This document shows, piece by piece, positions 45,606-47,594 of a DNA stretch of 64,000 nucleotides (position 1 is the stretch's first letter; every line of letters starts with the position of its first letter). The notes beneath the pieces are model-generated. The model was not told the DNA's origin. It saw only the letters and a program-made list of their open reading frames with translations, and did no database searches. Location: assembly GCF_054482595.1 (NCBI RefSeq), contig NZ_JBTHVH010000004.1. One strand, 5' to 3'. Source of the stretch: a plasmid. Both the position numbers and the translations under genes were made by a program.

Positions 45606-46316
45606 CGTTCTCATAATGCGATACACCCGCTTTGCATTAACCACAGGCAGGCCGTCCCGCTCCGACTCCCGTCGCAGCAGCGCCCACACACGGCGATAAC
45701 CATACGTCGGCAGGTCAGCCACCGCCATGTTTATCCGGGACAATACGGTGGTATCGTCAGAACGGGGCTGCCGTCTGCGATCCTGTCAGTCAGATGGCCG
45801 GTGAACCCGAATGCTCAACTGCGCACGCGACACGCTAAGACTTCTGCAAACGTCGCTTATTCGTCGTTCCCAGGCAACGAGGGCGCATGCGCAATCCATT
45901 TTTTTGCCCGGCCGAACTCCACGGCCTCTTTGAGTATCTCGGCTTCCATCGTCTTTTTGCCCAGAAGGCGCTGGAGTTCGCGAATTTGCTTATTGGCGGC
46001 AGCGAGTTCGGAGGCCGGCACCACTTCCTCGCCCGATGCAACAGCCGTCAGTGAACCGTCTTAATATTGCTTGCGCCATTTGAATATCTGGTTTGCATTG
46101 ATGCCATGCAGGCGCGCGACATGAGACACGGTCATACCGGGCTCCATAGTCTGCTGAATAATGGCAATTTTTTCCTGCGGTGTACGACGCCGACGCCGCT
46201 CAGGTCCTGATAACACTTCAACCATCTTATCGTTCTGACTGGTATTAAACATAGTTCCAAGACTACCTCTTATTTTAAGAGAGTCGAAGTGTCTGGTGAT
46301 CTATGGGGCCAGTCTA
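45606..46316 (-). mobile_element. IS2-like (IS3-family) element fragment, truncated by IS26
   Basis: Terminus TAGACTGGCCCC (reverse complement at 46305..46316) as in IS2; OrfA N-terminus present. Confidence 0.65.
46061..46252 (-). pseudogene. IS3-family OrfA, N-terminal 63 aa then premature stop
   Basis: ...[44 protein letters not shown] stop. Confidence 0.65.
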
Positions 46317-46619
46317 GCCCTCTTCCAAGTGTAGGGAGATATAGTCAAAGTTTGCTTCTCCGCCGATGAGTCCGCCCTGCGTCGGATAGTCCGATTTTTT
46401 ACCGGCGAAGCACGGCTCTCCTAACCCTATCTAAAGCGAATAACTTTTTTCAACAGGGCCGCGTGCCAATGCAAGAGCGATAGGCGCTCTACGCGCCAAT
46501 TTGACCACTTAAAACAGGTAAATTGAGGGGTTGTAATGTGTTGATGTAACAGGCTTTTATTTTAATGTCTTGGCATATGTATAATGGTAGTCTAGCCCTC
46601 CTTTCAACAAGGAGTACTC

Positions 46620-47276
46620 ATGGAAACCTACAATCATACATATCGGCACCACAACTTTTCACATAAAGACTTAAGTGATCTCACCTTCACCGCTTGCACA
46701 TTCATTCGCAGCGACTTTCGACGTGCTAACTTGCGTGATACGACATTCGTCAACTGCAAGTTCATTGAACAGGGTGATATCGAAGGCTGCCACTTTGATG
46801 TCGCAGATCTTCGTGATGCAAGTTTCCAACAATGCCAACTTGCGATGGCAAACTTCAGTAATGCCAATTGCTACGGTATAGAGTTCCGTGCGTGTGATTT
46901 AAAAGGTGCCAACTTTTCCCGAACAAACTTTGCCCATCAAGTGAGTAATCGTATGTACTTTTGCTCAGCATTTATTTCTGGATGTAATCTTTCCTATGCC
47001 AATATGGAGAGGGTTTGTTTAGAAAAATGTGAGTTGTTTGAAAATCGCTGGATAGGAACGAACCTAGCGGGTGCATCACTGAAAGAGTCAGACTTAAGTC
47101 GAGGTGTTTTTTCCGAAGATGTCTGGGGGCAATTTAGCCTACAGGGTGCCAATTTATGCCACGCCGAACTCGACGGTTTAGATCCCCGCAAAGTCGATAC
47201 ATCAGGTATCAAAATTGCAGCCTGGCAGCAAGAACTGATTCTCGAAGCACTGGGTATTGTTGTTTATCCTGACTAA
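46620..47276 (+). CDS. qnrS1: Pentapeptide-repeat quinolone resistance protein QnrS1
   Basis: 218-aa ORF METYNHTYRHHNFSHKDLSDLTFTACTFIRSDF... Confidence 0.95.
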   Translation: METYNHTYRHHNFSHKDLSDLTFTACTFIRSDFRRANLRDTTFVNCKFIEQGDIEGCHFDVADLRDASFQQCQLAMANFSNANCYGIEFRACDLKGANFSRTNFAHQVSNRMYFCSAFISGCNLSYANMERVCLEKCELFENRWIGTNLAGASLKESDLSRGVFSEDVWGQFSLQGANLCHAELDGLDPRKVDTSGIKIAAWQQELILEALGIVVYPD

Positions 47277-47594
47277 TTGCTTTGATGTGTGATTTTAAAC
47301 GCTCAAATTTATAAAACGAATAATATTGTCAACCTTGCAATAATAGACATAGGGACAACCATGTATAAATTTTTACCCTCAGGCGTCTTCACAATAGAGC
47401 CATATAGCAGTGGGTCACTTAGTGGGCTTAATTTTTCCATTAAAGATAATATTAATATTGCTCAGTATAAAACATCATATGGTAGCCCATCTTGGCAAGT
47501 AAACATAAGGCTGCCATTTATAAGGCACTGTTGCAAAAATGTGGAGGTGATAGGGGTACTACGCCGGAACCCCAGATTTTTCCGTCCGTTCAAA

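Follow-up and report, generated by a model that had tools for sequence, protein, structure and literature searches.

Organization of the qnrS1 locus

Within the window, by which we mean the whole 64,000-nucleotide stretch of plasmid DNA that was analysed, we found qnrS1 as an open reading frame encoding a 218-aa pentapeptide-repeat protein, with DNA 100% identical to annotated QnrS1 loci (WP_001516695.1). The gene and its surroundings comprise the following features.

44786..45605, minus strand: complete IS26, 820 bp, with paired 14-bp inverted repeats, truncating an IS2-like element
45606..46316, minus strand: ΔISEcl2 (IS3 family, IS2 group), with the IRL end, orfA and the 5' part of orfB, cut by IS26
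46311..46322, plus strand: 12-mer copy 1, made of the ISEcl2 tip AGTCTA, then GCC, then CTC of the tnpA remnant
46320..46408, minus strand: remnant of a Vibrio-type Tn3-family transposase gene, reading ...AGKKSDYPTQGGLIGGEANFDYISLHLEE
46409..47523, plus strand: Vibrionaceae chromosome-derived segment with native promoter and leader, qnrS1, intergenic DNA and the amidase 5' stub
46589..46600, plus strand: 12-mer copy 2, within the native qnrS leader, just 3' of TATAAT (46580-46585)
46620..47276, plus strand: qnrS1
47362..47523, plus strand: 5' stub of an amidase gene, with 12-bp and 1-bp deletions, truncated at 47523
47524..47552, plus strand: 29-bp relic of the left (transposase-proximal) end of an IS26 relative, reading GGCACTGTTGCAAAAATGTGGAGGTGATA
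47553..47590, plus strand: 38-bp terminal inverted repeat of a Tn3-family transposon, starting GGGGTACTACGCC...
47595..48024, minus strand: ΔtnpR (serine recombinase/resolvase) of this right-hand transposon, a 145-aa ORF, cut by ISKpn19
48025..50881, minus strand: ISKpn19, 2857 bp, ISKra4 family, 99.9% identical to L002 6941-9797 and so annotated in its matches

The leftmost IS26 carries a 240-aa Tnp26 ORF (44838-45560, minus strand) and matches the window's remaining IS26 copies exactly. The limits of the Vibrionaceae segment fall at 46408/9 and 47523/4, as judged from homology and from a change in GC content (41.4% in the segment against 52-55% in the flanks), with homology to the chromosomes of V. 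mytili, P. ganghwense and Enterovibrio beginning at 46408 and homology to the E. ictaluri locus ending at 47523. Vibrio splendidus is the published source group of qnrS. The closest chromosomal qnrS is that of V. mytili CAIM 528 (96.8% nucleotide and 97% amino-acid identity to qnrS1), which shares the conserved leader and an amidase-like start downstream of the gene; since it is not identical, V. mytili would not be the exact progenitor. Unlike the window locus, chromosomal Vibrionaceae qnrS loci are without IS or Tn scars. The amidase stub aligns, at 94.4% identity, with the start of a 1221-bp amidase family CDS of pEI-2234-3. As an IS-free ancestral context, the E. ictaluri plasmid serves only in part, as it is without ISEcl2 and the IS6 stub but has a Tn3-family tnpA fragment.

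The left flank: ISEcl2 and a transposase remnant

On the left, the minus-strand sequence of the ISEcl2 terminus at 46305-46316 is TAGACTGGCCCC, which aligns with the end annotated for E. coli IS2A; by blastn, window positions 46211-46317 aligned to L005 1866-1760, where IS2A starts at L005 1761, which puts the first base of IS2A at window position 46316. The ORFs of this element, named ΔISEcl2 in PMC7319535, are like IS2 InsC/InsD, and its orfA has an in-frame stop. A complete copy in pK245 (L008 4512-5793) measures 1282 bp, has 31-nt imperfect inverted repeats with the ends TGGATTTG.../...CCAGTCTA, and lies between two unrelated pieces of DNA, blaLAP-2 and the tnpA remnant; no 5-bp target duplication accompanies it there (flanks TACAG vs GCCCT).

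The tnpA remnant itself amounts to 89 bp of demonstrable homology (46320-46408) that is 96.6% identical to E. ictaluri pEI-2234-3 (L001 4001-4089), where the matching stretch is part of a tnpA pseudogene of about 1.1 kb, and its nearest relatives, at 77-80%, are carried by Vibrio plasmids. Because the ISEcl2 junction lies in this Tn3-family remnant and not in Vibrio DNA, ISEcl2 appears to be a later arrival. Between the ISEcl2 tip and the tnpA homology stands GCC (46317-46319), exactly the letters that complete the 12-mer match. We also considered whether the left tnpA remnant and the right Tn3-family element are one transposon and rejected this, as their inverted repeats differ (GGGGTCACACGACAATTCGG... 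in L001 vs GGGGTACTACGCCGGAACC... here).

The 12-mer repeat upstream of qnrS1

The window contains the 12-mer AGTCTAGCCCTC in just two exact copies, at the positions first noticed. Both are on the plus strand, copy 1 at 46311-46322 and copy 2 at 46589-46600, and copy 2 ends 19 nt before the qnrS1 ATG (46620). The preliminary description took the pair for a repeated IS2-type terminus, a reading that fails at copy 2, which has no more than the 6-nt tip TAGACT in common with the IS end and is native leader: on the minus strand, copy 2 continues from TAGACT into ACCATT, whereas the IS continues into GGCCCC. Chromosomal qnrS loci of Vibrio, Photobacterium, Enterovibrio and Catenovulum retain the leader block around it, GGTAG(T/G)(C/A/G)T(A/T)GC...C, those of the first three genera being free of IS, and the E. 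ictaluri locus reads AGTATAGCCCTC at the copy-2 site. Copy 1 is composite, with 6 bp of ISEcl2 tip and 6 bp of flank at the edge of the tnpA fragment, and tnpA relatives carry GAT where the window has GCC.

Nor is the repeat beyond chance: in first-order Markov shuffles of the window, exact 12-mer direct repeats no more than 300 bp apart numbered 1.05 on average, with at least one in 64% of shuffles. With copy 1 composite, copy 2 inside a conserved native leader and about one such repeat expected by chance, the 12-mer repeat is thus a coincidence and not an IS footprint. That a chance repeat should overlap an IS tip is mildly unusual, at about 1% by an a posteriori estimate. A role of the 12-mer as a deletion substrate was ruled out, since the predicted ISEcl2-12-mer-qnrS1 product occurs in no PLSDB plasmid and all full matches consist of two pieces. 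In a consensus scan the TATAAT at 46580 was not called as a full sigma-70 promoter; we infer that copy 2 lies near +1.

A 29-bp relic of an IS26 relative beyond qnrS1

To the right of the gene, the solitary GGCACTGTTGCAAA described earlier is present at 47524-47537 (plus strand), 248 bp past the qnrS1 stop (47276), with neither partner nor IS body. Among the 17 occurrences of GGCACTGTTGCAAA in the window, 16 are accounted for by the two ends of each of eight complete IS26 copies, and this one alone is unpaired. Its assignment as an IS6-type inverted repeat held up and could be extended, as it is a true terminal remnant of the IS6/IS26 family that is 29 bp long, more than was first noticed: positions 47524-47552 match 29/29 the transposase-proximal end of an intact IS26 relative of about 820 bp carried on two metagenome contigs (L010 and L011). 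IS26 has the same 14-bp terminal inverted repeat but differs from the relic at 5 of the subterminal 15 nt (positions 15-29), over which the L010/L011 element matches 15/15. Judging by these positions, the relic derives from a relative of IS26 and not from IS26 itself. It is also far beyond chance, as the sequence continues into a 29/29 match to a real IS end and GGCACTGTTGCAAA gave no chance match in 100 shuffles.

The parent-type element measures 819-820 bp with a single transposase and is 89-90% identical to IS26 in nucleotides; the L011 copy, at 90.4% identity to IS26, encodes a 234-aa transposase without interruption. The flanks of the two copies resemble Enterobacterales DNA (Pantoea, 89.6%; feoB, 77%). 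A search of PLSDB for the parent IS returned at best an unnamed IS6-family element matching 27/29, and the exact end was met only in the two metagenome contigs. An intermediate in which the amidase stub is joined to a complete IS was found neither in PLSDB nor in the metagenome scan.

The relic starts (47524) at the exact end of the Vibrionaceae-derived DNA (47523) and is cut at 47553 by the 38-bp inverted repeat. It is a relic rather than an IS because the transposase gene and the second inverted repeat are missing, with the remaining repeats in the window all belonging to the eight complete IS26 copies and the Tn3-family inverted repeat coming next. The search for a partner inverted repeat or a target duplication that had been proposed returned neither for the relic in the window; ATTTATAA, which flanks the relic, adjoins no IS26 end there, an absence that is uninformative because the relic's second end is lost. 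Matches to the inverted repeat with two mismatches lie at 46447, in native conserved sequence, and at 46823, in the qnrS1 coding sequence.

Beyond the relic, 47553-48024 appears by sequence to be the end of a Tn3-family transposon, with the inverted repeat, the adjacent resolvase gene and tnpA all matched in relatives. The inverted repeat, which starts GGGG, agrees at 34/38 positions with one adjoining a Tn3-family tnpA pseudogene on Y. ruckeri pYR3; tnpR is intact in pIMP-Z96-1, where its 615 bp precede a res-like region and the start of tnpA (N-terminus; order as read in L002).

Distribution and relation to the published module

Comparison with other qnrS1 contexts, the check suggested at the outset, found the relic junction to be fixed in about 1,840-1,880 plasmids: the junction was present in 1839/1998 plasmid records and its 30-mer, at ≥99% identity, in 1879. 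At least 1733 records had both the ISEcl2 end and the qnrS1 start, at least 80% of window 45606-48100 was present in at least 1486 plasmids, and the module ΔISEcl2-qnrS1-ΔtnpR-ISKpn19 was met in about 2,000. Junctions fixed to this degree show that a single assembly is the common origin of essentially all qnrS1 plasmids.

The published unit reads IS26-ftsI-blaLAP-2-orf-ΔISEcl2-qnrS1-ΔtnpR-ISKpn19-IS26 (PMC7319535). Where window 45606-50881 and pK245 overlap they are 100% identical; the difference from the units of pE66An, pK245 and related plasmids (PMC7319535, PMC4635468) is that IS26 cuts ISEcl2 at 45606, which is why blaLAP-2 is absent here. The locus is accordingly an ordinary one, a known resistance module in its usual worldwide plasmid context. 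The analysis adds to this module a set of three short unannotated scars, namely the 29-bp IS stub, the tnpA remnant and the amidase stub. In the literature searched on the qnrS1 unit none of the three is annotated, and no earlier description of the 29-bp stub, including its sequence string, was found.

A proposed history of the module

We interpret the locus as the standard, clonally inherited qnrS1 module, in which a piece of Vibrionaceae DNA is framed by inert mobile-element scars and the 12-mer is coincidental, and give this reading a probability of about 0.8. The order of events that we infer is as follows. The captured piece is 1.1 kb of Vibrionaceae chromosome with the qnrS1 promoter, leader, qnrS1 and the first 162 bp of the amidase gene. 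An IS26 relative about 90% identical to IS26 would formerly have adjoined the amidase gene at 47523|47524; the stop of Vibrio homology at the IS tip is a direct observation, unlike the steps that would come later. The IS would then have lost all but its first 29 bp, most probably through insertion of the Tn3-family transposon 29 bp inside it, since the transposon inverted repeat begins at 47553. The other half of the IS and the far end of the transposon were not found, so that insertion into the IS and a simple deletion are not told apart. ISKpn19, which cuts the transposon's resolvase gene, would have arrived afterwards. On the left, the joint of Vibrio DNA to the Vibrio-type tnpA remnant of about 90 bp would reflect a deletion of about 550 bp relative to the E. 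ictaluri sister locus, and ISEcl2, in turn truncated by IS26, lies against that remnant. Neither motif is functional now, and the module is moved passively by the flanking IS26, ISKpn19 and its host plasmids.

Earlier, the two motifs had been suggested to be possible footprints of the first mobilisation of qnrS1. On such a view, which we regard as improbable, the second 12-mer would mark where an IS2-type element once stopped or the site that it chose, and qnrS1 would have been captured by an IS6-type element on its right-hand side. The IS6 relic does lie exactly at the end of the Vibrio DNA, where a capturing IS would be expected, the 12-mer does contain the true ISEcl2 tip, and a chance repeat on an IS tip is uncommon. 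Against this, the second 12-mer is native, in a block kept where no IS is present, and its likeness to the IS end ends after 6 nt; ISEcl2, whose orfA/orfB are IS2-like and whose window copy is truncated by IS26, adjoins the tnpA remnant and not Vibrio DNA, with no 5-bp duplication in pK245; the relic has neither a partner end nor an 8-bp duplication; and its intact relatives sit in Enterobacterales-like DNA, which suggests a post-transfer event and not capture in Vibrio. The IS6 stub taken by itself is possibly a footprint of the original mobilisation. The E. ictaluri locus, in part a case of an undamaged amidase gene beside qnrS on a mobile element, speaks to some extent against it. Far less credible is an origin of the lone repeat as an IS26 stub left by deletion through a resident IS26, or as a chance 14-mer: the first 14 nt equal the IS26 inverted repeat and eight IS26 copies reside in the window, but the next 15 nt side with the L010/L011 element, about 1,880 plasmids carry the stub irrespective of how much IS26 they contain, and the shuffles produced no chance match.

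We likewise give very little credence to the relic being functional still, whether as a hotspot for IS26 targeted conservative recombination or, paired with 46447-46460 (minus strand), as one end of a transposase-less qnrS1 cassette. The relic's terminal 14 nt match the IS26 inverted repeat perfectly, an inverted copy with two mismatches (12/14) lies upstream of qnrS1 at 46447-46460, and qnrS2 travels on the transposase-less mobile insertion cassette mic-qnrS2 of Aeromonas plasmids (Cattoir et al. 2008, PMC2600179), which resembles the qnrS1 locus in its qnrS allele, in the short terminal repeats nearby and in having no transposase of its own. That cassette, however, has a pair of 22-bp inverted repeats along with a 5-bp duplication, whereas the qnrS1 locus has a single stub with no partner and no duplication. 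The upstream inverted-repeat-like sequence is native, as its block is conserved in Vibrionaceae chromosomes, none of the sampled breakpoints fell at 46447, and in PLSDB no plasmid showed IS26 joined to the relic, the full-length matches to the predicted junction all being two separate pieces.

We tentatively put forward a two-stage history, possible though on balance unlikely, in which a V. mytili-like chromosomal qnrS-amidase segment would first have been joined, in Vibrionaceae, to a Vibrio-type Tn3-family transposon, after which, in Enterobacterales, an unnamed IS26 relative would have cut the amidase gene and brought the segment into the plasmid pool. The E. ictaluri qnrS locus keeps more of the Vibrio/Tn3-family junction, and the IS26 relative has so far been seen intact only in Pantoea-like DNA. 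This two-stage qnrS1 history is not yet written down.

Significance

The gene qnrS1 is among the commonest transferable quinolone-resistance genes. The locus holds no new mechanism, gene or element type, and what is added is confined to annotation and history, that is, the exact limits of the Vibrionaceae DNA (46409-47523), the IS stub at its right edge and the tnpA remnant at its left edge. The fixed junctions could act as markers for tracing the common ancestor of qnrS1 plasmids, and, if the two-stage history were true, the 29-bp stub would be the sole surviving trace of the element that launched a quinolone-resistance gene ranking among the most widespread.

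The qnrS1 module and its spread

The window is a multiresistance region riddled with IS26, with eight complete copies between 6794 and 63682, seven of them 820 bp long and mutually identical and one (56908-57726) of 819 bp; among the eight, only the copy at 16989-17808 is bounded by an 8-bp direct duplication (CTTCTGGT). The qnrS1 module within it is already known, its published unit being IS26-ftsI-blaLAP-2-orf-ΔISEcl2-qnrS1-ΔtnpR-ISKpn19-IS26 (PMC7319535; also PMC4635468), and the qnrS1 DNA shares 100% identity with thousands of loci annotated QnrS1. The features discussed here are as follows.

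46320-46408, minus strand: part of a Tn3-family transposase gene, with homology demonstrable over 89 bp
46620-47276: qnrS1 (218-codon ORF)
47362-47523: 5' stub of an amidase gene, carrying 12-bp and 1-bp deletions (homology with the Edwardsiella ictaluri plasmid)
47595-48024, minus strand: resolvase gene (ΔtnpR), cut by ISKpn19
48025-50881: ISKpn19 (2857 bp; transposase, serine recombinase and a pRiA4b ORF-3-like gene)

At ≥80% coverage, 45606-48100 was recovered from at least 1486 PLSDB plasmids (Klebsiella, Escherichia, Salmonella, Shigella and others), and 47280-47800, which spans a lone inverted repeat right of qnrS1, from 1839 of 1998 matching plasmid records. The 30-mer from 47524 occurs at ≥99% identity in 1879 PLSDB records, and the ISEcl2 end and qnrS1 start occur together in at least 1733. 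Because the junctions between qnrS1 and its flanks are shared across this many plasmids, they are inherited parts of one ancestral module rather than local events.

Two further observations concern other parts of the window. The 12-mer GCAGCGCCGGCA lies at 36727 and again 195 bp further on, at 36922; some 16 kb away its reverse complement recurs at the same spacing (52880 and 53075), which suggests two inverted copies of one gene, the second inside tetA at 51856-53130. At 44786 an IntI1-like integrase ORF (43780-44892) runs into IS26, suggesting that this element has truncated a class 1 integron integrase.

The qnrS1 core and its Vibrionaceae relatives

A scan of chromosomal QnrS proteins, with one genome per species, revealed the nearest relatives in Vibrio mytili (97% amino-acid identity), Enterovibrio, Photobacterium ganghwense, Catenovulum and others. 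Nucleotide homology with V. mytili, P. ganghwense and Enterovibrio starts at 46408, and that with V. mytili spans qnrS into the downstream gene, up to the end of the V. mytili contig; GC content is 41% over 46409-47523 and 52-55% in the flanks. The E. ictaluri IncC plasmid pEI-2234-3 carries a sister qnrS allele (98.2% identical to QnrS5 by rgi; nucleotide identity 98.0% with V. mytili and 96.7% with qnrS1) and, downstream of it, an amidase gene of full length (1221 bp). Its homology with the window stops at 47523 (ATTTATAA|GGCACTGT in the window vs ATTTATAA|TGCCTTGT in pEI-2234-3), thus identifying 47362-47523 as the amidase 5' stub.

Upstream of qnrS (46430-46600), Vibrionaceae chromosomes share near-invariant blocks, namely AACTTTTTTCAA (~46441-46452), CTTAAAACAGG (~46508-46518) and TGGTAG directly before 46589, which are candidate sites for the regulation of qnrS. 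On the E. coli plasmid NZ_CP041956.1 the gap from ISEcl2 end to qnrS1 start is ~213 bp below the usual, an upstream deletion with a possible effect on the native qnrS1 promoter.

The left junction and the 12-mer repeat

The IS2-like element left of qnrS1 is ISEcl2, whose tip aligns with base 1 of E. coli IS2A as annotated. In pK245 (4512-5793) a complete 1282-bp ISEcl2 sits between blaLAP-2 and qnrS1 with no 5-bp duplication around it (flanks TACAG and GCCCT), so it joins two unrelated segments and is not a simple insertion. The DNA that separates the Vibrio segment from the ISEcl2 tip does not come from a Vibrio chromosome: 46320-46408 is a piece of a Tn3-family transposase gene that shares 96.6% identity with a stretch of the ~1.1-kb tnpA pseudogene upstream of qnrS on the E. 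ictaluri plasmid, a tnpA whose nearest relatives occur on Vibrio plasmids. The sister locus (3461-6814 of pEI-2234-3) comprises a Tn3-family inverted repeat (GGGGTCACACGACAATTCGG...), the tnpA pseudogene, ~300 bp of Vibrio-like upstream DNA, the qnrS allele and the full amidase gene. It is a less-eroded form of the window's left junction, relative to which the window has lost ~550 bp across the original boundary of tnpA and Vibrio DNA.

The preliminary description had proposed a repeated IS2-type terminus beside qnrS1 as a possible mobilisation footprint. The window has exactly two copies of the 12-mer concerned, AGTCTAGCCCTC, one at 46311 and one at 46589. Its first copy is a composite of AGTCTA (the ISEcl2 tip), GCC and CTC (the first three bases of tnpA homology), in which the GCC at 46317-46319, GAT in two tnpA relatives, completes the match. 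The second lies in the qnrS leader just downstream of TATAAT (46580-46585) and matches the IS end over 6 nt only; its block has counterparts on the E. ictaluri plasmid (AGTATAGCCCTC) and in chromosomal loci that lack a neighbouring IS (among others GGTAGGCTTGCCCTC in V. mytili and GGTAGTCTTGCTTTC in Enterovibrio and Photobacterium), so this copy is native sequence. In shuffled sequence, 64 kb contains on average about one pair of identical 12-mers in direct orientation no more than 300 bp apart, and among PLSDB plasmids we found no deletion between the two copies, nor any detectable consequence of the repeat. We conclude that the repeat is a coincidence and not a duplicated terminus, though the GCC is unaccounted for and landing on the IS tip is, by our own estimate, a ~1% event.

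The solitary inverted repeat and the right junction

The solitary IS6-type end also proposed after qnrS1 was borne out. Sixteen of the 17 window matches to GGCACTGTTGCAAA are paired ends of the eight IS26 copies, whereas the 17th (47524-47537) is unpaired and continues as a real IS end, though not that of IS26 (AATGTGGAGGTGATA after the 14-mer vs TAGTCGGTGGTGATA). The best non-qnrS PLSDB matches to this 29-bp relic (47524-47552) reach 27/29, at the termini of an unnamed IS6-family element. Scanning metagenome contigs with the pattern TTGCAAAAATGTGGAGGTGATAA, which excludes the qnrS1 context since GATA there precedes GGGG, matched two contigs, each with a complete 819-820-bp IS (89-90% identity with IS26) that matches the relic over all 29 nt at its left end; one copy encodes an intact 234-aa transposase. 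Judged by this identity, the relic is what remains of an IS26 relative at its transposase-proximal tip, and the lost body lay to the right. The window holds no partner end or 8-bp duplication for it, no IS26 is fused at it among PLSDB plasmids, and we saw no sign of activity.

Around qnrS1, three minus-strand sites match the IS26 inverted repeat at 12/14: 46447-46460, which is native because its block is conserved across Vibrionaceae, 46823-46836 within the qnrS1 coding sequence, and 48466-48479 within the ISKpn19 transposase gene. All three are probably chance matches.

At 47553 begins GGGGTACTACGCCGGAACCCCAGATTTTTCCGTC, which matches at 34/38 the terminal inverted repeat adjoining a Tn3-family tnpA pseudogene in Yersinia ruckeri pYR3. 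It differs from the inverted repeat that the left-hand transposon has in the sister locus, implying two distinct Tn3-family elements. Next to it in the window comes the minus-strand resolvase gene; in pIMP-Z96-1 this gene is intact, with a res-like region and the beginning of a tnpA behind it. The simplest reading is that a Tn3-family transposon inserted 29 bp inside the IS26 relative, a step we infer, since the remaining half of the IS and the far end of the right-hand transposon were not found. ISKpn19 interrupts tnpR in the window, which then goes on into tetR/tetA and not into the remaining tnpR, whereas in pIMP-Z96-1 (6941-9797) it is inverted and truncates the Tn3-family tnpA. A variant, NZ_CP074357.1, has ISKpn19 right behind the GGGG that opens the Tn3-family inverted repeat (~3777), with the whole ΔtnpR gone and the 29-bp relic kept.

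Timing of the IS26 relative

In the incompletely accessible literature we found no description of three small scars, namely the amidase stub, the tnpA remnant and the 29-bp stub of the IS26 relative. The 29-bp stub may mark the original capture of qnrS1, which its position fits, but its intact relatives sit in Enterobacterales-like DNA (flanks 89.6% identical to a Pantoea agglomerans plasmid and 77% to Klebsiella/E. coli feoB), and in the E. ictaluri sister locus qnrS is already attached to a Tn3-family fragment while the amidase gene is intact. Together these two observations suggest that the IS26 relative arrived at a later step.
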